From a virus: 64,000 nucleotides of DNA. Of the stretch, positions 1-64,000 are shown piece after piece. Numbering within the stretch: position 1 is the first letter of the stretch; the number at the start of each line of letters is the position of its first letter. Where the stretch lies: the IMG/VR virus record IMGVR_UViG_3300045988_033140, positions 41,447-105,446 of that record. One strand, 5' to 3'. The position numbers and the translations under genes are program-made. The notes under the pieces are model-generated. The model was not told the origin of the DNA. It made no database searches and worked only from the letters and a program-made list of their open reading frames with translations.

Positions 1-1653
1 TGGATAACCGTAACTACTCGTGGATGTATCACCTAAATACATGATACGCGTAGCATTACTAGTATAATAACTATACGCAAAATTCTTACCTTGGGTACAT
101 TCTGCTTTACTAATAGAGCTATTAGCAACAGATAATGGAGAATAAGAATCAAGACCAAATTCTCTTTCTGAAAGCAAGAATACTGTTTCATCATTATAAG
201 TTACATCGCCATTACGAGAACTATTAGTAGATGGACAAGTGCCTTTTTTAATAGTCTTAATAGAGGCTTTACCGGGAAAAGCGTTATAATAGTTTTGACA
301 TAGACTTCTAGCAGTAGAACCAATCCAAACTGCGTTACTACCGAAAGAGGTATACTGGGATAAGCAGTTCTTAGTCTGGAACGTAACTGTATTATTAGCA
401 TCTTGATCTACGCCGATAACTCTAATTAAGTGAGTAGTAGTACCTAAAACTGGGCTCGAAAGCGTTACAGATTTAGTTGTGCCAAGAATAGCACCGCCAT
501 TACTAGTTTTAATAGAGGTGCCAGTATGAGAAGCAAGATAGTTCTTTAAACCAGCAAACCATGCCGCATCAACAGTACCACCATCAGCGCCCCAAGACCA
601 ATATTCTGCGCTAACAGTAATAGTCTTACTAGAAGGCGCAGTATGGTTAGTGCCTGCAGCGACGCTAATGGTAATAGTTTTTGCGGAAACCGCAGTAGAA
701 CCATTACCTTTAATAGTAAGAGTATTGCCATTAAGAGATAAGGTCAAACCAGAAATACTAGTAGGACTATAGCTAATAGCACCATTGCCCGCGCGAGTAA
801 TAGTAACAGCTACGCCGGAGCTATAGTTATTACCATTAATGGCTACTATCGTTGGACTTACACTCAAACTACCTGCCGCCTTGTTGATTGTCCAATTAAC
901 ATTGATTGCGGTAGTGGTTCCGTCCGTCCAGCGATAGTTACTACCGGGCGTAAAACTAGCTGCATAAGTCCCCGCATTAGTAGCAGATGTAGTACCACCA
1001 ATAGTCATGTAACTAGTGTTATAGTTATTCCAATAACTGGTGCTATTGATGGATTGCGGATTCCCGTTATAGGTAAGATTATTCTTCCACGTAGGTTTAG
1101 CTATAGATTTACGATTGACTGTAACATTAAAAGTCGCAGTTTGAGTAACTCCATTTTCTGTGTAGCTAACTGTAACTACTTGATTTCCAATAGTTGAAAA
1201 AGTTTTTGGAGAGCAAGAATAACTAGTTACCGGTTTAGTCTGAGAATCGGAATAACTAGCAGTAACAACCATACCAGTAGTAACTAAAGTATCTCCATAC
1301 TCATAGGTTAACTTATTAGGTTTAGTAGTTATAGTAATCGCGGAGAGCCTATGCGTGACTGTGACTGCTAGAGTCGTAGTGCAAGTTTCTCCGCCTTCAG
1401 AGTAAGTGATGGTTACGGAAGTAGTACCATCAGTTAAGACGCTAGGGGATACAGAATATCCACTAACTTCTGCGGTTGCTAGAACCGCTTGCCCAGTACC
1501 GTAAGATGCGGTAACGACCATACCGGCGCTATTGAAGCTGTCGCCCGCAAGATAGCTGGTCTTAGTAGGCTTAGTGGTGACTTCGATCTTCATAAGAACG
1601 ATGCCGCTTCCTCCACCTTTTCCGCCTTGCTCAGCTAAAATACACTTAGGCAA
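1..1653 (-). CDS. Tail fiber / receptor-binding-like protein with repeated Ig-like (Big_2-type) domains; partial, runs off the window start
   Basis: Hand translation of the minus strand from 1653 gives an uninterrupted >540-aa frame with no stop of any kind. It has repeated ~80-aa modules (TKPTKTSYLAGDSFNSAGMVVTASYGTGQ..TVTVT). Start is TTG at 1653-1651, 8 nt after a GGAGG. The track ORF 1574..1801 lies antisense to this frame and is considered spurious. Confidence 0.55.
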   Translation of the reverse strand, partial: MPKCILAEQGGKGGGSGIVLMKIEVTTKPTKTSYLAGDSFNSAGMVVTASYGTGQAVLATAEVSGYSVSPSVLTDGTTSVTITYSEGGETCTTTLAVTVTHRLSAITITTKPNKLTYEYGDTLVTTGMVVTASYSDSQTKPVTSYSCSPKTFSTIGNQVVTVSYTENGVTQTATFNVTVNRKSIAKPTWKNNLTYNGNPQSINSTSYWNNYNTSYMTIGGTTSATNAGTYAASFTPGSNYRWTDGTTTAINVNWTINKAAGSLSVSPTIVAINGNNYSSGVAVTITRAGNGAISYSPTSISGLTLSLNGNTLTIKGNGSTAVSAKTITISVAAGTNHTAPSSKTITVSAEYWSWGADGGTVDAAWFAGLKNYLASHTGTSIKTSNGGAILGTTKSVTLSSPVLGTTTHLIRVIGVDQDANNTVTFQTKNCLSQYTSFGSNAVWIGSTARSLCQNYYNAFPGKASIKTIKKGTCPSTNSSRNGDVTYNDETVFLLSEREFGLDSYSPLSVANSSISKAECTQGKNFAYSYYTSNATRIMYLGDTSTSSYGYP

Positions 1654-3538: not shown

Positions 3539-3561
3539 CATTATATAATGAGGTGATAAAG

Positions 3562-4167
<606 letters not shown>

Positions 4168-4216: not shown

Positions 4217-4600
4217 ATGCCAGAAATTGTGATTCAAATTATCCAGGTGTGTGTTATTCCTTTACTCGGTATCTTGACTAAATTCCTCGTGGATTATTTA
4301 TCCGCAAAACGAGATGAAATTAACTCTAAGACCGACAATGAGATTGCTCAGAAATATACCAATATGATTTATCAGACTGTCGTTGATTGCGTTATTGCAA
4401 CCAATCAGACCTATGTAGATAGCTTGAAGAAATCTGGAAGCTTCGATGAAGCAGCTCAGAAGGAAGCATTTAACCGCACAATGAACGCTATTATGACTAT
4501 TCTAAGTGACGATGCTAAGGAATATATTACCGAAGCTACAGGTGACTTAAATACTTATCTCACTCAGTTAATCGAGGCCGAGGTTAATAAGCGTAAATAA
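4217..4600 (+). CDS. Holin_LLH-family protein (phage holin superfamily 6-like), single N-terminal TM
   Basis: 127-aa ORF with AAGGAGG RBS and an N-terminal hydrophobic helix. The conserved LKKSGSFDEAAQKEAF block is typical of LL-H-type holins. Confidence 0.5.
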   Translation: MPEIVIQIIQVCVIPLLGILTKFLVDYLSAKRDEINSKTDNEIAQKYTNMIYQTVVDCVIATNQTYVDSLKKSGSFDEAAQKEAFNRTMNAIMTILSDDAKEYITEATGDLNTYLTQLIEAEVNKRK

Positions 4601-7671: not shown

Positions 7672-8103
7672 TTATTCGGGTTTAATTGGTAGTTCCAATG
7701 CTAATTCGTAATATTCTTTAGCTTGACCATTTCCGCCTAATCCAGAATATATTCGATAAAACTCGCTTAATTGGTCATATTGCTCTTGCGTCATATAACT
7801 CTATTTAATATAAGCTTTACAAAGCTAAACCAAACGGAATTTATAAGACGAAATAATTAGCTGCATATGACTTTTCTCAATATCTTTAGTTTCCATGATA
7901 TATTTTCGAAGTTCTTCGATTTCTTTCTGAATCGGTTCAATACGAGAATCTATAGTTTTTTCTAACTCAGTGTCTTTACTCTCTTCAAGTAATTTTTTGT
8001 AATTCTTTAACTAGCTATGTAAGTATTTACAAAAAGCTAAGGCTCCCGCTGATACTAAGCCGAAAAAAATTTCAACTAAATGTTCAGCAATAAAAGTAAA
8101 CAT
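7672..8103 (-). CDS. Hypothetical membrane/coiled-coil protein, 143 aa, 3 in-frame TAG (Gln)
   Basis: ATG follows GGAAGGAGG. N-terminal TM (FIAEHLVEIFFGLVSAGALAF). 144 codons in frame end at TAA (7672) and include three TAG codons (after YLHS, RLV and AYIK). Confidence 0.5.
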
Positions 8104-8178: not shown

Positions 8179-8658
8179 TTACCAAGCGCATTTATTCTTC
8201 TTGATATGATGTGTCCCGATACATACAGCATCCGCGATATCCTAGATAACATGGATACCATAATTCTATTCTACATATAGTTGAGCATTCTTTTTCTATT
8301 CTGCTCTTGTTCGACCCTTAATGCCTAAAGTAGATTTCCAAGATGCGGCGAGAACTGTTGAATGAGGAATCTGGATTTCTTGTAGTAACTCTGATACAAC
8401 TCCATAAACCTCTGCCAAGACCTTAAAGGTCTAAACATTATTAGCCACATTGTTCTATTGCTAAATATCTTCAAAGATTACTTCGTCGATATTATAATCT
8501 GCAACTAAAGTCTAAATACCCTATCGCAACTAAACTAGTCTAATATCAGTATTTGGATCATCTAAAGAAATCTTGCCGTAGGACTTCAATTCACCATCTT
8601 CAAAGATAGCCCACCCAGTAACCTTTGAGGCTTGGTCGAGGGCTAACAAGCGACTCAT
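8179..8658 (-). CDS. RuvC-like Holliday junction resolvase, 159 aa, about 11 in-frame TAG (Gln)
   Basis: MSRLLALDQASKVTGWAIFEDGELKSYGKI is a RuvC N-terminus with the catalytic Asp. Further acidic residues (IFED, DIADAV) sit at expected positions. Start overlaps the dUTPase stop (TAATG). 160 codons are in frame only if TAG is sense. The track ORF 8625..8984 (+) is considered spurious. Confidence 0.75.
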
Positions 8659-19383: not shown

Positions 19384-20148
19384 TTAACTTATGAAGTAAT
19401 TATATGCAGCAATAGCATTTTGCTGTCGCGTATAATAGCTCCCAGAACCGCATCTCTCATAGCATTTAGCAAATGCCAGAGCGGCGCTTTTAATGTCGGT
19501 TAAATCTAAGAAACTATTGTAATCAAAGTTTCTCTTATAAACATAACCGAATGTATCGAACTCGTACTCAATAGTATCTCGCAGATAGTCGCATTGCTCT
19601 TCTAACGAGGCTCCCCATACATTTGAGTAGGCTTTATTCCATTGACATATACCATAATATCCGTTACCAGAAATCGTGGCTTGAATGTCTAATGTGTTAC
19701 CTCCAGTTTCAGCCATTATATTACCAAGAATGCCAGCACAAACTTGGTTACTGTAGCCCAGATCTTTGAAGTAGGTCCATATATAAGTAGCTGTTGGGTA
19801 CTCTTCTTCCTTTTGATGCCAATGTTCCATGAGTTGGTCATATACGCTTTGATATTTCATTCTCAAAGCATTTGCATCAGCGTGTTCTTGTTTTGCTAAT
19901 ACAATGACGTCATGGTCTTCACTATAGCCTAGCTATCTAGCAGCTTCAGCCATTTGATGTGCGGCGTTCATATTCGAGATTTGTTCCGCAATAAGCTCAA
20001 CCAATGTATCCATATCATCAAGAGTATAACTAACAGTTTCGTTATACGGTACGGAATAGGCTTGAGTAGTGACCACTAGGCCATAGCCACATCCGCATAA
20101 AGACAATATAATGATTAAACTTGTGATAACTTTAATAAAACGACTCAT
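19384..20148 (-). CDS. Lipoprotein-signal lysozyme (Phage_lysozyme2-like domain), joined through 1 in-frame TAG
   Basis: The 71-aa ORF has a lipobox (LSLCGCG) and ends in TAG in frame with the 160-aa lysozyme-like ORF (..AAR[Q]LGYSEDHDV..LRMKYQ..). The catalytic domain resembles the N-terminal domain of the endolysin at 37523..38930. Confidence 0.6.
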
Positions 20149-29205: not shown

Positions 29206-29517
29206 TCAGTTATCGTCTCCCACAGTATTTGTGTATCCTACAATGTTAAATTGATCGAGCCATCCATCTAGTTCATCAATAACAGCAATACATTTCATAC
29301 CTCTCGCTTTTGTTAGAAAATATCCATAGCTAATAAATCCTAAATTCTGCGGTAGATTACGCTCTTTTGTTAATTCTAAGAACTTTTTAACCATTAGTTG
29401 AGGATGTTGAGTAACAAAGAGCACCATCTTATCAGGATATTTATATGCTAAATCATTTGCATAGCGCATTAAGCTAGTTGTCTTGCCTGCACCACGACTC
29501 GCAATCACTTTAAACAT
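29206..29517 (-). CDS. Small P-loop NTPase (103 aa), function unknown
   Basis: P-loop SRGAGKTT. Confidence 0.4.
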   Translation of the reverse strand: MFKVIASRGAGKTTSLMRYANDLAYKYPDKMVLFVTQHPQLMVKKFLELTKERNLPQNLGFISYGYFLTKARGMKCIAVIDELDGWLDQFNIVGYTNTVGDDN

Positions 29518-30431
29518 TATGAACCTCCACGAGTGCTATTTAATCCATAGTCTTTTGTTTTATAGAAGTCAATCCAATAAGTTTCACGTTCATTTAATGA
29601 AGCTCTAGGGACTTCTTCTAATACTTCAAAGATAAAGTTATACTATCCAGATTTTTGCATTGTTTGATAAAGCTTATTAGTGGCAGGCCCATATGCTAAA
29701 GAAGACTTGATATGCTATCTAAATCGTTCTTTAATATCAACAGACTAACCGATATAAGCCTACCCAGTTGTTAAATCGGTAATTTTATAGATGCCGCAGA
29801 CCTTCGTTGCTTTAGAGAATAATCTTGTCATAAGCGTATCATACGAAGGTTTATAATAAGTTTCCCAAATTAGCTTATCTATTGCTTCTTTCTTAAAGAA
29901 ACGCTTCTATAATTCACGGAGCAATTCAATATCACTAATATCTATTTCATCAATAGCCAGACGATAATAATCCTAATCTGCGGCAATCGCTTCTTGGCGC
30001 TATTGAGCCTAGATATAAGATAACTATTTAGCCTCCAATTCATGGAGTTTATCTTGCTAATGTGAAATTTGATTAGTTATCTACTGAAGTTCTGCTAAAT
30101 GATATTTTTCTTTAGCTTGATATGTTTCATCAAGCTCTTTACTTTTCTTTTCAAATTGAGCCTTAGCGCTCTCTTCCGCTCGCTATTCAGCGCTTTCCCG
30201 CAACTTATTCGCAGTATCGTTTAAAGAATTGACAATTTCATTATGTGATATAATATCTTCTTTTACTTTTGCTAATTCTCTCTATTTCAATGCAATATCT
30301 TGTTCAATACGTTTATTTTCTTCTTGTCTTTCTTTATTTATCAATACTACCTAAAGCCGATTATTGCGGAGATATAAAACATATCCTATTAACGCAAGAA
30401 TAACCAAGCCTGATAATATATAATAAATCAT
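29517..30431 (-). CDS. GIY-YIG nuclease-domain protein (N-terminal TM + coiled coil + C-terminal GIY-YIG), 304 aa, about 14 in-frame TAG (Gln)
   Basis: The C-terminus reads GIYKITDLTTG[Q]AYIG[Q]SVDIKERFR[Q]H..ETYWIDFYKTKD, with the canonical YIGQS motif encoded by TAG. 305 codons are in frame to a TAA that overlaps the next ATG. No listed track ORF corresponds to this frame. Confidence 0.7.
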
Positions 30432-37146: not shown

Positions 37147-37166
37147 GCTTAAAATAAGAAAAGGCT

Positions 37167-37196
37167 TAGTAGATTATTAAATCTACTAAGCCTTTA
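37167..37196. terminator. Terminator hairpin (GGCTTAGTAGATT-atta-AATCTACTAAGCC)
   Basis: Seen directly, 4 nt past the holin-like gene stop. Confidence 0.6.
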
Positions 37197-37199
37197 ATA

Positions 37200-37523
37200 T
37201 TAGATGGTTGCCTCATCCTCGATTATCTGCTGCTATTGTTGCTCACACATAGCTAAATCATAGGTAATTCCACCCTTGCGGTGATCAGATTTACTCATAT
37301 TTAAGTAAAAAGAACAAACAATACCATGCGCAGACCAGGGTAATCCTACTAATGCACTAATCCATGGAAGAGTGCCTAAATAGCCAAGATGTACGCAATA
37401 GAAAGCAAGAGCAATACCAGAGATAGTTACAATCCACAATAAAGAGCGAATATCGCAAATAAGTTGTTTAGAAAATTCTCTTTTCTAGTTGTGTCTTCTT
37501 TTTCCTCTTGTTTGACGAGTCAT
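37200..37523 (-). CDS. Holin-like small membrane protein (107 aa, 2 TM), 2 in-frame TAG
   Basis: ATG overlaps the endolysin stop (TAATG). TM segments WIVTISGIALAFYCVHLGYL and LPWISALVGLPWSAHGIVCSF, with a charged C-tail. The track shows only the 37233..37439 fragment. Confidence 0.5.
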
Positions 37524-38930
37524 TATTGACCACTCTTTTCAGCATAACGTTTTAGAACGGCTGCAAATTCGCCGCGAGTCATAAAACGCTTTGGCATTAA
37601 TTGACCCTTTTCATTGCCATTGATTAAGCCATTAGCTTGTGCCCAAGTCATCGCATCTTGTTCCCAAGTAACTGGTTGCGCAGCGAGCTGGCTTAAATAT
37701 ACATTCATCATTTCGTTGAATTTCTCTTGAGTCATATCTTCATCATCCTCCTCGATAACTTTAGACTGCATTAAAGCAGCAACATCTTTGCGAACAGTCG
37801 TCATATCTTTGCCATATTTCTTGAACCAGTGGTATACATCGGCATGATTACTGCCGAGACCCAACTGATAACTATCCTGATGACAGAGAATTGTTGGGAC
37901 TGTTACGCCATTTACATTTACAAAACCATTTGGATTGATATTATATGTTTTACATAAATAAGCTGTCAATTCGCAAGCTTCTTGGTAAACTTTAGCGAAG
38001 TAGTTGGGATCACTTAGATTGTCTTCGCAAATTTCAAATTGAATCCATCCAGTATTACAACTACCTTTAGACCCTGAGCCGCAACCCCAAGGTCTATAAT
38101 TCCAAGGTAACGTTTGTACTGCGGCTACACTTCCATCAGCAAGAGCACCAATCCAAGCGTTTACACCCGCTTGCTATGAGCTATGATTCCAATCGGTTCT
38201 ACTGGTATTTTTACCAATTTTAGCAATCAGAGATTGATAATTTTTATCATTCTCAGATGGTTGGACATAACGCTTAATAGTTTTATTATTAGCTCCTGTG
38301 CTATGCCAGAGTACACCTTTAATATCCATTTTACGGGTTTGTTTATAACAGGTACTATTAGTCATCATGCAAACCAATGGTTGATTGGCGTTTGAATATT
38401 TCATCTTAGCCATTTCCTCCTTTTGCGTTGAATATGTATTGAAATAACGTTGGCTGTATAAAGCCCGCTGTTTTAGCGCATCGGAACTTTGATCTGCCGG
38501 TCGTTCAAACTGAGTGACCACTAAATTAGATGCTTCTTCAACAGATGAGGTAGTCTTTAAGATTTTTAATAGCTAGGAATAACTTGTAGTTAGTTCCTGA
38601 TATAAAAAATCTAGTTGAGTGTTCAAGTCACCAATAGACTTTCCTCGACTTTTACACAGCTAAAACAGACCTTGTTTGCGGCTCTAATATGTCCATTGAG
38701 CTAAACCATATCCAGCAGAATCATGCGTGAAATTGGTATAGGAACCATTATCAACAGCCGCAGTATACGAGGCATCGTTCATTCCTAACTTGCTCTCATA
38801 TGAGTTCTATAAGTTAGTTGGAATAAGTCCACTTTCCGCGAATAGATTCCCCATTAGACCTGCGGCGCCGCAGTTATTTAATCCTTTTGATTTGAGATAA
38901 TCCCAAATAACTTGAGCATTATCTGCCAAT
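37523..38930 (-). CDS. Endolysin: Phage_lysozyme2-like domain + N-acetylmuramoyl-L-alanine amidase (Amidase_2) + C-terminal SLH domain; about 5 in-frame TAG
   Basis: TTG start 8 nt after GGAGGTGAGG. The N-terminal domain reads GNLFAESGLIPTNL[Q]NSYE..GYGLAQWTY[Q]SRKQGLF[Q]L..ELTTSYS[Q]LL..EASNLVVTQFERP. It continues in frame through TAG into the amidase_2 region and the SLH domain (WEQDAMTWAQANGLINGNEKGQLMPKRFMTRGEFAAVLKRY). The two track ORFs 38174..38521 and 37523..37969 are fragments. Confidence 0.75.
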
Positions 38931-38961
38931 AGCCTCACCTCCAATTAGGGTATAAAAATAG

Positions 38962-38986
38962 GTCGAGGGATTTCTCCCTCGACCTT
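38962..38986. terminator. Terminator hairpin (GGTCGAGGG-atttct-CCCTCGACC) with flanking T/A runs
   Basis: Seen directly, downstream of the phoH-like stop. Confidence 0.6.
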
Positions 38987-41156: not shown

Positions 41157-42653
41157 TTACTCCTTATTAGAGGAGTCTGCCAACTTGCCACCGAGAAAAC
41201 CGGTGAGCAAGGTTTTCACATCAATACCGAGGGATTCACTCAGTCCCTCAGAAACCTGAGCGACATTCTTGATAATGTTGCCAGACAGTTTGCTGGTGTC
41301 ATCACCAAACATTACAATCTTGTCAACATTGGTGTACGCCTGACCGGTAGCCTGAGCAATAGCAGGCAACTGCTGGAAGTACAGCTTGAGGGCTTCCATC
41401 TGCATATCCATCTTGGCAGCTTCGCCATACTGCTTCATGGCTTCTGCCTTCTTCATAAGGCCTTCAGCTTCTGCCTCAGCCTTAGCCTGAATCGCGGCAG
41501 CCTCAGCTTCACCACGAGCCTTAGTAGCCGCAGCTTCTGCTTCGCCCTGAACACGAACAGCCTCAGCTGTAGCACGCTGGGCTTCAGCTCTCTGCTCTGC
41601 TTCAAAACGCTCGGCTTCAGCGGTTTTCTGACGCTCATATAGGTCTGCTTCAGACTGCTTCTGAGTAGCGTATAGCTTAGCATCAGCTTCCTGCTGAGCC
41701 GCATACTTCTTGGCTTCCGCAGTCTTCTTAACCTCGGCCTCCAAAGCACGCTCTTTAATGGCGACTTCGCGCTCCTTCAGGTCAATCTCCTTTTCCTGAC
41801 GAGCAATGTCAGCATCTGCCGCGGCCACATCGCGCAGTTTACGCTGGTTCTCAGATTCGATTTCCATAGCAGCGTTAGCCTGAGCCTGCTTGGTATCCGC
41901 CTCCTGCTTCAACTGAGCCTTCTGAATAGCCAGACTGTTATTACGCTTGGCAATCTCTTCCTCAGCCTTCACGCGGGCATCATTAGAAGCCTTAGCGTTT
42001 TCAGCCTCGGCCACTGCGATCTCGCGCTGGGCGTTAGACTTAGCAATTGCGGCGTCCTTGCGGATCTGCTCGACGTTATCAATACCGAGATTGGTGATAA
42101 CATCATTGTCATCAGAGAAGTTCTGGACATTGAAAGAAACCAGCTCCAGACCAAAACGAGCCAGGTCAGGTACAGCATTTTCCTGTACCTTTTCGGAGAA
42201 GGCCTTGCGGTCGCCGACCATTTCAGTTAGCTTCATCTGGCCCACAATCTCACGAATATTGCCTTCCAAAAGATCGTTAATCTTCTGTGCGATCTGATCG
42301 CGAGAGACATTTAGGAAGTTCTGAGCAGCAAGAGCAATCATCTCTTCACTCTGACCCACGCGTACAGAAACGGTAGAATCGACTCGCACATTGATGTATT
42401 CAGCCGTCGGCACGGCAGAGCCAGTCTTAACATCAATCTGAATGGCTCCTAGTGCCAGCTTATCCAGTCGCTCCAAGAAGGGAATCTTGATGCCAGCCTT
42501 ACCGACCAAAATACGAGGTTTCTTGTGCAGACCAGAAATGATATAGGCAACATCAGGTGGAGCCTTTACATAACCAGAAGCCAAGAGGGCGATAAGAGCA
42601 ATAGCAATAATCACCACAGGAACAAAAGGAAGAATAGTCATCAAAATTTCCAT
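41157..42653 (-). CDS. SPFH/band-7 (flotillin/YqiK-like) membrane protein; GC-richer than average
   Basis: N-terminal TM, SPFH core, and a long Ala/Glu/Lys/Gln-rich coiled-coil C-terminal half. 498 aa. Confidence 0.7.
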   Translation of the reverse strand: MEILMTILPFVPVVIIAIALIALLASGYVKAPPDVAYIISGLHKKPRILVGKAGIKIPFLERLDKLALGAIQIDVKTGSAVPTAEYINVRVDSTVSVRVGQSEEMIALAAQNFLNVSRDQIAQKINDLLEGNIREIVGQMKLTEMVGDRKAFSEKVQENAVPDLARFGLELVSFNVQNFSDDNDVITNLGIDNVEQIRKDAAIAKSNAQREIAVAEAENAKASNDARVKAEEEIAKRNNSLAIQKAQLKQEADTKQAQANAAMEIESENQRKLRDVAAADADIARQEKEIDLKEREVAIKERALEAEVKKTAEAKKYAAQQEADAKLYATQKQSEADLYERQKTAEAERFEAEQRAEAQRATAEAVRVQGEAEAAATKARGEAEAAAIQAKAEAEAEGLMKKAEAMKQYGEAAKMDMQMEALKLYFQQLPAIAQATGQAYTNVDKIVMFGDDTSKLSGNIIKNVAQVSEGLSESLGIDVKTLLTGFLGGKLADSSNKE

Positions 42654-44913: not shown

Positions 44914-45744
44914 TTATTCCTCCTGACATTGGATTAGAGATTCGATATACTCACGTCCCTCTCCGACAAATAGCGGAATATTTTTATCAATTTCCCAGCT
45001 AGAGCGAGTTACACCATCGGTCTCAGTTGTAACCTTGATGCAACAAGAACCATGCTTATACATAGGATGAAAGTCTTCCCAAGAAATCCCTTTCTCCGTG
45101 ATTAACATCTCTTTGATTTTCTCACAAGATTTACCTTGGAGTTCTTTGTGAGAGAAATTAGCCTGACCTACCATCTGAATAGAATTGCGGGTTGCATCTA
45201 GCTGACGCCAATAGACAAGGTTGGTGACCTCTTCCTTGGGGATATTGAAACAACGAGCATCAAACATGGCGCCCATTTGTGCTTTTACTGCATAAGTCTG
45301 GCCCAAATCATCTTGTGGGTAAGGGTTATCCATAGTCGCATGAGCGGCATAATAATCTAGATTCCTATGCCGAACTCCTTCATTAAATGCTTTGTTGAAA
45401 GCCATCGTTGCCATAGAAGCAGCGATAGAGCACATTTTCTGTACCTCGTAATCAAACCAAGCAGAGCTGTTGAGCCGCTTGTAATCAACAAGGATAAGAG
45501 TGATTTCATCACTTTGGGTATACCCTAATACGCACCCTTGAATGTTTTCACAGAGATATTTCATGGTATCCTGCATCGCACTAATCAGCACATCGTCAAA
45601 AGGCTTACTGAAACCACGGGTAAAGGTGTGGAAAGCTTTACCGTCAATGCGAATTGCAACTGGGGTACGGCGCATTAACTTAGTCTTAGGAACGCTTTCA
45701 TAGAACTCTTTCATCCGAGTTCCAAGTTCATCATAAATAGGCAT
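44914..45744 (-). CDS. Thg1-like protein (tRNA-His guanylyltransferase family, 3'-5' nucleotidyl transferase)
   Basis: VAIRIDGKAFHTFTRGF and GYTQSDEITLIL match Thg1 catalytic motifs. ATG 10 nt after AAGGAG. Confidence 0.75.
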   Translation of the reverse strand: MPIYDELGTRMKEFYESVPKTKLMRRTPVAIRIDGKAFHTFTRGFSKPFDDVLISAMQDTMKYLCENIQGCVLGYTQSDEITLILVDYKRLNSSAWFDYEVQKMCSIAASMATMAFNKAFNEGVRHRNLDYYAAHATMDNPYPQDDLGQTYAVKAQMGAMFDARCFNIPKEEVTNLVYWRQLDATRNSIQMVGQANFSHKELQGKSCEKIKEMLITEKGISWEDFHPMYKHGSCCIKVTTETDGVTRSSWEIDKNIPLFVGEGREYIESLIQCQEE

Positions 45745-45772
45745 TTTCAATCTTCTCCTTTCTTATACATAT

Positions 45773-53118: not shown

Positions 53119-53274
53119 TTAATCTTCAAAATGATTGGCAAGGTGTAAAAACATAAAAGAAAAATTTCCTGCAATAAAACCAGTAATATAAATAGCAGAA
53201 GGAGGGACTATTGTTGCTAGCATAGAGCCAACAACAATAGTAATCAGCCACAGACCGTAGAAGATAATTCTCAT
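53119..53274 (-). CDS. Tiny membrane protein (51 aa)
   Basis: Its ATG overlaps the RNA ligase TGA (ATGA). One long hydrophobic stretch. The track ORF 53126..53509 in this region is considered spurious. Confidence 0.3.
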   Translation of the reverse strand: MRIIFYGLWLITIVVGSMLATIVPPSAIYITGFIAGNFSFMFLHLANHFED

Positions 53275-54539
53275 ACTTCGTCCTGTGCCTCCTCCATATC
53301 GGGAGTAGTCTCAGTCTCTTTGATAATACCCTCAAGTACCTTGAACTCGTAAGTCTTAGACTTGAAAGCAGTGAAGGTGCGGCGGTTAACGATACGAACC
53401 ACAACGCCCTCTTTAACATGAGTTTTGCCGATAGGATCGGCCAAGTCCTCGAAATACTTGTTAATGCGGTCCTGCAAGTCCTCGGCAGTAGTGAACTTGA
53501 AGTTCTCAATCACCGGGACACGATTAAAGCCATGCTTCTCACACCAAGCAGTAATCTCGTCAGGAGTCCACTCGCGCTGACCATTCTCGGAAGTAATGCG
53601 ATAAATCCACATATGAGACTCACCGGGCTTGCAGCCGTAGGAGAAGATAGACTTCTTACCGAACAACTTTTGGAAAGCCTTATCTTTTAGCTTGGAGTTA
53701 TCGCCGATAGGCATGATGGTATCGTTCTCAGAGGGACCGTAGTACCCCACTACCTCGTAAAAGACCTCCATACCAGGATCAAGATGGGGTTTCAATGCCT
53801 CATGGTGAGACATACGAAATAGATCATTGCCGTAGTAGCCCTGAGAGTTCTCAGTTACAACGCAACGGCGCGTACCGAGAACATAAGCCTGCTTCAGACG
53901 CTTCTTCATATGGAATAGACGACGGAAGAAGCCATTAGGTAGCTCAGCAAAGGTGTTCATGGATCGCTGAGAAGTGCCATGCATCTTAAGAGTCATATTC
54001 AGCTCATCGCCGGGACGGAACTTATCCAGATTGTATGCAAGCTGCTCGGTGTCAGTGTGCATTGCAAACTCAGGATAGGTAATACCCTCTGCCTTACGAC
54101 CCTTGTAGGAAGTCTTAGGAGTGGTGCTCGGAGTCTTACGCTTAGGGATATACTTACGGCAGAACTCCTTGCCATTGATAGTATTTACCTTATTTCCGTT
54201 CTTCCAATGCTGATTGCCAAAAACCTCATAGACACGCTCAAGAGAGATGACGATGCCAGAACTCTCGTTGCCACGAAGCTTGATAGCCCGCACGTGAGAG
54301 CTATTTTCCAAGTATCCGCCTTGAGGAGTGCCATCAAGATTCTTCCGATATAGGGTGAAAGCGTCACCGAACCATCTCTCGATCTCTCCGTCCGTAGGAA
54401 GATAAAGCACTAACTCATTCTCCTTCATATTGGGTCCAACAATAACACCTTCATTAAAACAATCTGCCAACCACAGATTATCAGAATTAGGATCTTTATG
54501 GAGATTATTCAGTTTTGTCACTAGAGCGTAATAAGCCAT
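53271..54539 (-). CDS. ATP-dependent RNA ligase (Rnl2/Rnl5-like nucleotidyltransferase with KxHG motif)
   Basis: Motif I LKMHGTS matches T4 Rnl2 (KIHGTN). N-terminal OB-like domain. 422 aa. GC-richer than surroundings. Its 5' end overlaps the upstream homing-endonuclease gene by ~38 nt, so the true start may be internal. Confidence 0.55.
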   Translation of the reverse strand: MAYYALVTKLNNLHKDPNSDNLWLADCFNEGVIVGPNMKENELVLYLPTDGEIERWFGDAFTLYRKNLDGTPQGGYLENSSHVRAIKLRGNESSGIVISLERVYEVFGNQHWKNGNKVNTINGKEFCRKYIPKRKTPSTTPKTSYKGRKAEGITYPEFAMHTDTEQLAYNLDKFRPGDELNMTLKMHGTSQRSMNTFAELPNGFFRRLFHMKKRLKQAYVLGTRRCVVTENSQGYYGNDLFRMSHHEALKPHLDPGMEVFYEVVGYYGPSENDTIMPIGDNSKLKDKAFQKLFGKKSIFSYGCKPGESHMWIYRITSENGQREWTPDEITAWCEKHGFNRVPVIENFKFTTAEDLQDRINKYFEDLADPIGKTHVKEGVVVRIVNRRTFTAFKSKTYEFKVLEGIIKETETTPDMEEAQDEV

Positions 54540-63913: not shown

Positions 63914-64000
63914 CGTATCAATCTCCTTTTGATTTTTAGTTACTCACTTGGACAAGGGAGATTAGATTCTAGACCTTATCTTTTCGGTTCCGTTGGGTTT

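Follow-up and report, generated by a model that had tools for sequence, protein, structure and literature searches.

An amber-containing phage lysis cassette with a single-SLH endolysin and a putative internal start

How can a phage lyse its host with genes that the standard genetic code cuts to pieces? The question is raised by a 64,000-nucleotide stretch of viral DNA (IMG/VR record IMGVR_UViG_3300045988_033140, positions 41,447 to 105,446; hereafter the window). On its minus strand, running from 38929 to 37200, lies a cassette of two genes: an endolysin gene, and then a gene for a holin-like protein with two transmembrane segments. Both are interrupted by in-frame TAG (amber) codons. The endolysin raises a further question, in that it ends in one surface-layer homology (SLH) motif instead of the canonical three.

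The answer preferred here, with a probability of roughly three in four, is that the cassette is the lysis module of a tailed phage of ~145 kb that uses genetic code 15 (TAG = Gln), most likely in a standard-code host of the Oscillospiraceae type. This reading includes lysis gated by TAG, an SLH product that starts at Met399, and a second, membrane-tethered hydrolase encoded elsewhere in the window. It is carried by five lines of evidence: the domains, the code, a suppressor tRNA in relatives, the conservation of the internal start, and the distribution of TAG codons.

Three domains and a holin-like partner

The cassette comprises the following elements, with TAG read as Gln throughout:

37523..38929, minus strand: endolysin gene, 468 codons plus TAA (37525..37523); TTG start, with GGAGG (38942..38938) 8 nt upstream
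38435..38923, minus strand: Phage_lysozyme2 domain (PF18013), residues 3-165; Pfam 107.7 bits, cutoff 28.2; amber codons 41, 82, 90 and 119 inside
37877..38332, minus strand: Amidase_2 domain (PF01510), residues 200-351; Pfam 46.8 bits, cutoff 26; amber codon 252 inside
37562..37675, minus strand: single SLH motif (PF00395), residues 419-456; Pfam 30.0 bits, cutoff 20.8
37200..37523, minus strand: holin-like gene, 107 residues, 12.3 kDa; ATG at 37523 shares one base with the endolysin TAA (TAATG); stop TAA 37202..37200
38960..38985, minus strand: intrinsic terminator after a PhoH-like gene, the upstream boundary; 11-bp stem, 7 GC pairs, T-run
37160..37195, minus strand: intrinsic terminator after the holin-like gene, the downstream boundary; 16-bp stem, T-run

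An earlier note on this DNA, made from the letters alone, had proposed a three-domain endolysin whose C-terminal domain is of the SLH type, overlapped at its stop codon by a gene for a protein with two transmembrane helices. All of this stands: the C-terminal domain matches the SLH profile, and the domain E-values (7e-31, 4.8e-12, and 5e-07) are far beyond chance. The full-length protein also matches endolysin families in PHROG, at 213 and 124 bits, and the choice of TTG 38929 as start is supported by relatives that begin with MADNAQ.

Each domain retains the features expected of it. In the PF18013 domain, Glu32 lies within an AESG motif and is invariant among relatives; the N-terminal domain of phi29 gp13 (3CSR) is a sequence match to it in the Protein Data Bank (PDB). 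The Amidase_2 domain matches PlyL (1YB0) and PlyG (2L47), and residues H209, H350, H362, and D364, all invariant in the endolysin alignment, are candidate zinc ligands; which of the four bind the metal is a prediction from sequence. The SLH motif shows the signature Trp, GLING, and TRGE (TRGE, not TRAE). Its segment TWAQANGLING...MTRGEF aligns with W..GAVKG...LTRAE of Sap, and the W, G, T, and R residues are invariant or nearly so across related modules. The score rises to 33.4 bits for the isolated 70-residue C-terminal piece, and 8 of 16 related modules also exceed the cutoff of 20.8 bits. When a profile of phage and bacterial C-terminal modules is compared with the PDB, the top matches are all SLH proteins: Sap (3PYW, E 3.4e-5), followed by OmpM1 (8BZ2), SbsB, and SlpA. 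The module is a putative wall-binding module, whose presumed ligand would be a pyruvylated secondary cell-wall polymer or modified peptidoglycan.

The endolysin has no signal sequence (maximum 19-residue hydropathy of the N-terminal region, 0.88). Without a hydrophobic N-terminus, it should need a holin. The 107-residue protein is a predicted holin by its size, its transmembrane helix, its charged termini (an N-terminal charge of +7 and an acidic C-terminus), and its position beside the endolysin. The first helix, at residues ~28-46, is strongly hydrophobic (19-residue Kyte-Doolittle mean, 2.04), and the second, at ~52-70, is weaker (1.28). To judge by the TAATG overlap, the two genes are translationally coupled. 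Homologues of the holin-like protein occur at 61 endolysin loci (49 phage and 12 bacterial, including cultured standard-code isolates), directly downstream of the endolysin gene wherever coordinates were inspected, and the same endolysin-holin pair is found in small prophages. In the window the pair is located among genes for replication and nucleotide metabolism.

A candidate internal promoter, a perfect σ70 consensus within the endolysin gene (TTGACA-18-TATAAT, 12/12, at 37940..37969 on the minus strand), was rejected. Its hexamers drift freely at synonymous sites in relatives, and so it is probably a coding coincidence.

TAG as a sense codon

The extent given for the cassette in the earlier note, 37200..38930, contains real genes, but it silently assumes read-through of TAG, and the in-frame TAG codons went unmentioned. 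Translation table 11 cuts the endolysin gene into four open reading frames (45, 115, and 148 residues, plus one unlisted piece). The five endolysin codons, aligned against relatives, are:

38807..38809, minus strand: amber codon 41, an invariant Gln position; relatives have CAG (30), TAG (24), or CAA (24)
38684..38686, minus strand: amber codon 82, TAG private to the window; relatives have TGG (76 of 82), TAC (4), GAT (1), or AGT (1)
38660..38662, minus strand: amber codon 90
38573..38575, minus strand: amber codon 119
38174..38176, minus strand: amber codon 252

Two more are found in the holin-like gene (codon 13, 37487..37485; codon 97, 37235..37233), and one in the gene for a PF18013 lipoprotein described below. 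None of the three genes is open under the standard code; all are intact only because the phage uses code 15. Every interruption is TAG, never TAA or TGA.

The same pattern extends across the window. Of 76 gene calls made with only TAA and TGA as stops, the terminator is TAA in 64 and TGA in 12; TAG terminates none. In-frame TAG is present in 18 of the 76 (in a few, only upstream of the likely true start), and read-through restores RuvC, two GIY-YIG proteins, a serine recombinase (resolvase), RecJ, and NrdD.

What does TAG encode? In a codon census, the TAG codons of the window were aligned against 101 related loci. The corresponding codons are TAG in 491 cases, CAA or CAG in 154, and TGG in 76, with all of the TGG codons coming from one position. 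In the reverse direction, TAG codons of relatives face Gln in the window in 127 of ~205 cases; codon 351, for example, is CAG in the window and TAG in close relatives. In relatives with 96.8% nucleotide identity, four endolysin codons (41, 90, 119, and 252) and both holin codons (13 and 97) are likewise TAG. Of 49 endolysin codon differences from such a relative, 41 are synonymous, which indicates purifying selection. By these comparisons, TAG is a sense codon for Gln in this phage.

Decoding requires a suppressor tRNA, and relatives encode one. Just beyond the right edge of the window begins an array that in relatives holds 30-36 tRNAs plus a transfer-messenger RNA (tmRNA). A 91-nt tRNA(CUA) is present on the endolysin-bearing IMG/VR contig in all five of five relatives (L011:4173-4263, with equivalents in L012, L013, L015, and L019), ~15 kb past the right end of the window. 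It scores 54.5 bits in Rfam; the tmRNA scores 100 bits. This tRNA has several unusual features: a U1·U72 mismatch, discriminator base G73, a variable arm of 20 nt, and an anticodon arm that is essentially that of the phage tRNA-Trp(CCA) with another anticodon. Insertion of Ser, Leu, or Tyr was considered on account of the long variable arm. Leu and Tyr are disfavoured by G73, and Gln is the clear outcome of the codon census.

The E. coli su7 amber suppressor arose from tRNA-Trp and is charged with Gln; the phage tRNA(CUA), with its Trp-like anticodon arm, recalls it. As a side possibility, tRNA(CUA) may insert some Trp besides Gln, which would soften the private change at codon 82. Under code 15 that change is Trp82Gln, at a near-invariant aromatic site of the lysozyme-like domain. 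It could be an assembly error, or else a genuine variant, possibly a deleterious one.

The array, to the right of window position 64000, is represented by L011:1..18000 and L006:454..9806. The tmRNA encodes the tag DNNYFDSHMAA*. Some ARAGORN calls in the array are odd: four-base anticodons (taaa, tgtt), a tRNA-Cys(aca), and a tRNA-Ile(aat). Near the array are genes for a Thg1-like tRNA-His guanylyltransferase, an RNA ligase, and an AAA_33/KTI12-like kinase (window 44914..45750 and 53271..54539, minus strand; L002 and L006), which together suggest a toolkit for tRNA repair or maturation.

One SLH motif and a candidate start at Met399

The canonical triple SLH arrangement was not found: Pfam sees one copy, both in the full protein and in its 70-residue piece. 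LysBT1 and proteins of the OmpM type have the same arrangement, called "atypical single SLH". With one motif in place of three, the endolysin must oligomerise or be supplemented. A possible source of supplementation lies within the gene itself, where a Shine-Dalgarno (SD) sequence and a start codon precede the SLH module:

37733..37751, minus strand: putative internal translation start, conserved in relatives; GGAGG (37751..37747), 11-nt spacer, ATG for Met399 (37735..37733)
37526..37735, minus strand: predicted SLH-only product, 70 residues, 8.0 kDa, Met399 to Gln468, no TAG; one helix, then the SLH motif

The window reads GAGGAGGATGATGAAGATATG at this site, and the predicted product would begin with MTQEKFNEMMNVYLSQLAAQPVTWEQDAMTWAQANGLINGNEK. 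The stretch that bears the SD sequence is GAGGAGGA; a silent variant of it would be GAAGAAGA.

Met399 is invariant in the alignment and follows an acidic linker. In 63 of 68 phage relatives, GGAGG lies 8 or 11 nt ahead of ATG (61) or GTG (2), and the same spacing before a start codon is found in 22 of 23 standard-code copies from bacterial prophages. Among distinct sequence contexts, 28 of 31 keep GGAGG, and they do so through different residue pairs: EE, ME, KE, TE(-G), and TAG-GAG. Where the linker contains a run of Glu, GAG is used only at the first two Glu codons. Of all Glu-Glu codon pairs in the genome, GAGGAG is used least (9 of 120), and GGAGG is scarce within genes, at 0.74 per kb.

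The distribution of TAG also changes at this point. Across 32 recoded relatives, alignment columns of Gln type were split at codon 399: TAG appears in 27 of 49 columns upstream and in 1 of 16 downstream (p = 4.7e-4). In raw counts, the figures are 163 of 695 upstream and 1 of 171 downstream.

These features suggest a model in which the conserved SD sequence and ATG most likely yield a free 8-kDa SLH module. Such modules would join the full-length chain to form the three-SLH assembly that is usual for SLH wall binding. An internally initiated free module is, in any case, a testable answer to the question of how one SLH motif makes a three-fold anchor.

The alternative that survives best holds that there is no internal start. 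The full-length single-SLH endolysin would homotrimerise, as proposed for LysBT1, and GAGGAGGA...ATG would reflect selection for an acidic linker and a structural Met. The trimers of LysBT1 are indeed full-length, with no internal start reported (PMC12285257). Moreover, the acidic run (five E/D residues) is conserved at the protein level, and the 11-nt spacing in the window is above the optimum. Protein-level selection does not readily explain why GGAGG survives different amino-acid pairs and even a TAG codon, why only the first two Glu codons of poly-Glu runs are GAG, or why the only replacements for Met399 within the SLH-bearing set are the start codons GTG and TTG. The rarity of GGAGG within genes and the depletion of TAG past codon 399 point the same way. 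The homotrimer is therefore a serious possibility but a doubtful one.

A somewhat less probable alternative concerns the TAG depletion alone: the SLH module might have been acquired in a recent domain swap from standard-code prophages, in which case its lack of TAG would say nothing about a need for suppression-free translation. Shuffling is common among cell-wall-binding domains. Some relatives have other C-termini, copies from Lachnospiraceae and Ruminococcus are without this module, and related modules are present in standard-code Oscillospiraceae prophages. The module is nevertheless alignable across the recoded clade down to ~44% identity, and so has had no less time than the remainder of the gene in which to gain TAG; yet TAG has entered only 1 of its 16 Gln columns. 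A recent swap is unlikely on this evidence.

If the internal start is used, the gene could serve two programmes. The amber-free 8-kDa SLH module could be made under the host code as soon as its mRNA is present, and the 52.5-kDa chain (amber 41) and the holin (amber 13) would appear only after tRNA(CUA) accumulates; ready-made modules would then bind every newly completed chain in a 1:2 heterotrimer and so restore the three-prong SLH anchor. This extension of the model is offered tentatively, and the odds are against it in its full form. If true, recoding would set the stoichiometry and timing of a heteromeric endolysin, rather than act only as an on/off switch.

How does this enzyme compare with known endolysins? 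The first reports of single-SLH endolysins date from 2025-2026, and trimerisation is proposed for these enzymes (PMC12285257; bioRxiv 10.64898/2026.09.23.753664). The examples are LysBT1, a prophage endolysin of Brevibacillus thermoruber (PMC12285257), and LysPt1, LysPt7, LysPt9, and LysPt10 of Paenibacillus thiaminolyticus (bioRxiv 10.64898/2026.09.23.753664). Like the present enzyme, they have an amidase domain, a flexible linker, one C-terminal SLH motif (Trp, GIIxG-like, TRAE-like), and an adjacent holin gene; their SLH motif is thought to act as a three-prong trimer. The enzyme described here differs in its additional N-terminal PF18013 domain of glycosidase type, in its in-frame amber codons, and in its predicted host, a gut anaerobe of the Oscillospiraceae type rather than a member of the Bacillales. 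It differs also in the conserved internal SD sequence and ATG ahead of the SLH motif; neither PMC12285257 nor bioRxiv 10.64898/2026.09.23.753664 mentions an internal start.

Endolysins made of two polypeptides through an in-frame internal start form a second group: Lys170, LysIME-EF1, CTP1L, CD27L, and LysP7951 (PMC9430671, PMC7098653, PMC4777826). Their short wall-binding products assemble with the full-length chain, in reported ratios of 1:3 and 1:5 (PMC9430671, PMC7098653, PMC4777826). The likeness is close: an in-frame SD sequence and start codon lie in the linker between the catalytic and wall-binding parts, and the predicted short product is the wall-binding module alone. Here, however, that module is SLH, which goes unmentioned in the survey of such enzymes (PMC9430671, PMC7098653, PMC4777826), and the expected assembly is a three-SLH unit. 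Furthermore, the full-length product needs amber suppression and the short product does not, and the arrangement in the present phage is predicted from sequence.

Recoded lysis genes, single-SLH endolysins, and internal-start endolysins have each been described before. What appears to be new is the arrangement in which a full-length frame with ambers is joined to a predicted single-SLH product that starts internally and has none. Such a split within one gene, amber-containing and amber-free, is a feature to seek in other recoded phages.

Proposed gating of lysis, a putative tethered hydrolase, and the likely host

Under the standard code, translation would stop after residue 40 of the endolysin, residue 12 of the holin-like protein, and residue 71 of the lipoprotein. 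A standard-code ribosome would be expected to yield only short inert peptides from the endolysin (codon 41) and the holin (codon 13); full-length products would need the phage's own tRNA(CUA). Because the first ambers precede the functional parts, recoding would act as a translational safety catch on lysis.

The distribution of TAG among genes is consistent with such gating. In the three cell-wall genes, 8 of 55 Gln-type codons are TAG, versus 0 of 152 in the replication core, defined as PolIIIα, helicases, a gyrase-like pair, ligase, RNase H, ThyA, and PhoH (Fisher p = 1.7e-5). According to a published hypothesis, recoding prevents late or dangerous genes from being translated before the code switch (bioRxiv 10.1101/2021.08.26.457843), and the pattern here fits it. 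The cassette offers a concrete case of recoding that acts on lysis: in both lysis genes ambers come before the catalytic or membrane part, and the replication core has none.

Code-15 gut phages include crAss-like phages, Lak phages, the gemstone clades, and phAss-1 (bioRxiv 10.1101/2021.08.26.457843; PMC9523058; PMC10607447). Code 15 has been verified by metaproteomics in crAss-like phages (PMC9523058), and a comparable recoded group associated with Clostridia has been described (PMC10607447). The present phage resembles these phages in having sense TAG mainly in late or lytic genes, a TAG-free replication core, its own suppressor tRNA (to judge by relatives), a predicted standard-code host, and a genome of ~145 kb; like that of phAss-1, its predicted host is one of the Clostridia. 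Unlike them, it has its lysis cassette among genes for replication and nucleotide metabolism, its highest TAG shares in nucleases, a suppressor tRNA with a long variable arm, and no megablast match. One practical consequence is that annotation with the standard code shatters every cell-wall gene of this very common gut phage lineage.

The window also encodes the second PF18013 protein:

19384..20148, minus strand: putatively exported, probably lipid-anchored PF18013 protein, 254 residues; PF18013 66.5 bits, cutoff 28.2; amber codon 72 (19935..19933)

As the earlier note had reported, this gene, with its lipoprotein-like export signal, lies among replication genes, between a Dda/RecD-like helicase (phrog_325, 336 bits) and RecJ (DHH, DHHA1, and RecJ_OB all above cutoff). 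The order DnaB ... RecJ - lipoprotein - small ORF (open reading frame) - helicase - PolIIIα is kept in relatives with 63-70% identity, and the protein is conserved over its full length across the clade (49-99% identity). Its N-terminus has a basic n-region, a hydrophobic helix at residues 2-18, and then LSLCGCG (candidate lipobox LSLCGC, within residues 1-20). The signal-like helix is universal in relatives; a Cys preceded by Gly, Ser, or Ala is found in 13 of 16, and at least two have no Cys there at all. Glu147 and a YYGxCQW motif are invariant. The amber at codon 72 is lineage-specific, with CAA (in L182, a 70%-identical relative) or CAT elsewhere.

In an AlphaFold2 (AF2) model with a pLDDT (the model's own confidence score) of 84.8, the membrane helix (residues 2-18) is followed by a long helical hairpin that forms a stalk (43-113) and then by a lysozyme-like domain (~119-253). 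The best fold match of that domain is the N-terminal domain of phi29 gp13 (3CSR; probability 1.00, E 0.019, TM-score 0.53 on the target). This domain (3CSR/3CSQ), the PF18013 archetype, is thus matched by the endolysin in sequence and by the lipoprotein in fold, and both keep the catalytic Glu. In phi29, gp13 is a virion enzyme at the tail tip, fused to a LytM peptidase; here PF18013 is joined in one protein to Amidase_2 and SLH, and in the other to a lipoprotein signal and helical stalk. A recent duplication of the two domains was considered and rejected. BLASTP aligns only 30 residues around the catalytic Glu (E 8e-07), and the two are therefore distant paralogues.

What might the lipoprotein do? 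A role in ejection, raised in the earlier note, is unlikely: virions assemble in the cytoplasm, and a protein with a Sec/lipoprotein export signal would not easily be packaged into them. Tethered to the membrane on its stalk, the protein would probably serve as an auxiliary hydrolase acting on the infected cell's own wall.

It might instead be the main lysin: exported by Sec, tethered, and released or activated on depolarisation, with the three-domain enzyme as an accessory or virion-associated protein. Exported endolysins, of the signal-peptide and SAR types, occur in other phages. PF18013 is typically a tail lysozyme domain, PF18013 and several PHROG matches are tail-associated, and the lipoprotein is conserved in full length and in synteny across the clade. 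Nevertheless, it is the three-domain protein that matches endolysin PHROGs, that is coupled to a conserved two-helix protein between two terminators, and that recurs with its partner in small prophages; the PHROG match of the lipoprotein is to a family of unknown function only. This alternative is improbable.

Several points weigh against the overall reading of a TAG-gated lysis module with an internal start and a tethered hydrolase. No tRNA was found in the 64-kb window, and the suppressor is seen only in relatives, which are 90-99% identical in the anchor protein by which they were retrieved; on the window's own contig (ENA ERZ28622034 scaffold_44, 144.5 kb), the expected place of this tRNA lies outside the DNA covered. 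Its 20-nt variable arm and Trp-like anticodon arm mean that charging with Gln is not obvious from its sequence. The change from Trp to amber (Gln) at codon 82 may impair the lysozyme domain. The second helix of the holin-like protein is weak, and the 107-residue product has no match to a Pfam or PHROG family. The internal start is inferred from conservation only; its acidic linker could be under selection at the protein level, and the 11-nt spacer in the window is long. An AF2 monomer of the 70-residue SLH piece is of moderate confidence (pLDDT 69.9; helices at 24-34 and 54-68), and Foldseek gives it no significant fold match (top, the OmpM1 SLH domain 8BZ2, E 1.9, TM-score 0.33). Finally, TAG is commonest in nucleases and a recombinase (RuvC, 64%; GIY-YIG proteins, 56% and 43%; recombinase, 50%), so that gating is not specific to lysis, and a second holin candidate, at 4217, has no TAG.

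The most radical alternative, that the TAG codons are true stops and the cassette a dead one made of pseudogenes or assembly errors, could point to the four pieces under table 11, to the lack of a tRNA in the window, and to the private TGG-to-TAG change at the conserved Trp of codon 82, but it is effectively refuted by frames broken only by TAG, by TAG positions kept in dozens of relatives amid mostly synonymous flanking changes, by 76 genes of which none ends in TAG, by the exchange of TAG with CAA and CAG, and by a tRNA(CUA) linked to the endolysin on five contigs.

The host was expected to be a Firmicute, such as Bacillus, Clostridium, or Paenibacillus. The phylum (Bacillota) holds, but the data do not point to these genera: bacterial relatives of the endolysin that carry the SLH module are overwhelmingly of the Oscillospiraceae type (Flintibacter muris, Colidextribacter at three loci, Acutalibacter, Pseudoflavonifractor, and Oscillospiraceae isolates and metagenome-assembled genomes). 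Lachnospiraceae and Ruminococcus account for most of the copies that lack the module. The nearest partial matches in deposited phage genomes are to phages of Evtepia, Oscillospiraceae, Faecalibacterium, and Acutalibacter. On these homology-based comparisons the host is most likely a gut Clostridium of the Oscillospiraceae type that uses the standard code. The phage itself is distant from those in collections: megablast against 50,697 deposited phage genomes gave no nucleotide match to the window, and tblastn of the endolysin against deposited phages found partial relatives at 48% identity or less, with no record covering 80% of the protein. Single-SLH endolysins are thereby extended from Bacillales to abundant, hard-to-culture gut anaerobes of the Oscillospiraceae type, and the SLH module might be put to use as a domain that detects or targets these bacteria specifically.

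The second holin candidate had been proposed as a Holin_LLH protein:

4217..4600, plus strand: second holin candidate, 127 residues, one N-terminal transmembrane helix, no TAG; phrog_13712 ("holin"), 114.6 bits, full length

The PHROG match supports a holin. The Pfam family does not: Holin_LLH (PF09682) falls below threshold (17.1 versus 24.9 bits) and covers residues 3-60 only.

Other genes of the window show unusual codon use. The genes richest in TAG include RuvC (8179..8658, 64%) and the serine recombinase (3553..4167, 50%). A GIY-YIG protein (29517..30431, minus strand) has an N-terminal hydrophobic segment, a long coiled-coil-like region, and 14 TAG codons, or 56% of its Gln-type codons. 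Beside RuvC, a gene with three TAG codons (7672..8103, minus strand) encodes a 143-residue protein whose N-terminus forms a hydrophobic helix and whose middle is coiled-coil-like. It matches PHROGs 4105 and 4257, both of unknown function, and could be another membrane or lysis-related late protein. In a Band_7/flotillin-like gene (41157..42653, minus strand), CAG serves for all 33 Gln residues and CAA for none, versus roughly equal use in the rest of the genome; this bias may reflect foreign origin or high expression.

Two observations concern the ends of the region. Beyond the tRNA array, a related contig (L006:1..256) has another cell-wall-directed gene, whose product combines an NAGPA (phosphodiester glycosidase) domain with a SPOR (peptidoglycan-binding) domain. 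At the left edge of the window (1..1593, minus strand), an ORF encodes a DUF6273/Big_3 protein, and in relatives an RVT_1 reverse transcriptase lies ~1 kb further left (L008-L010:5451..9396). Together these suggest a diversity-generating retroelement, with a target gene that the edge of the window truncates.

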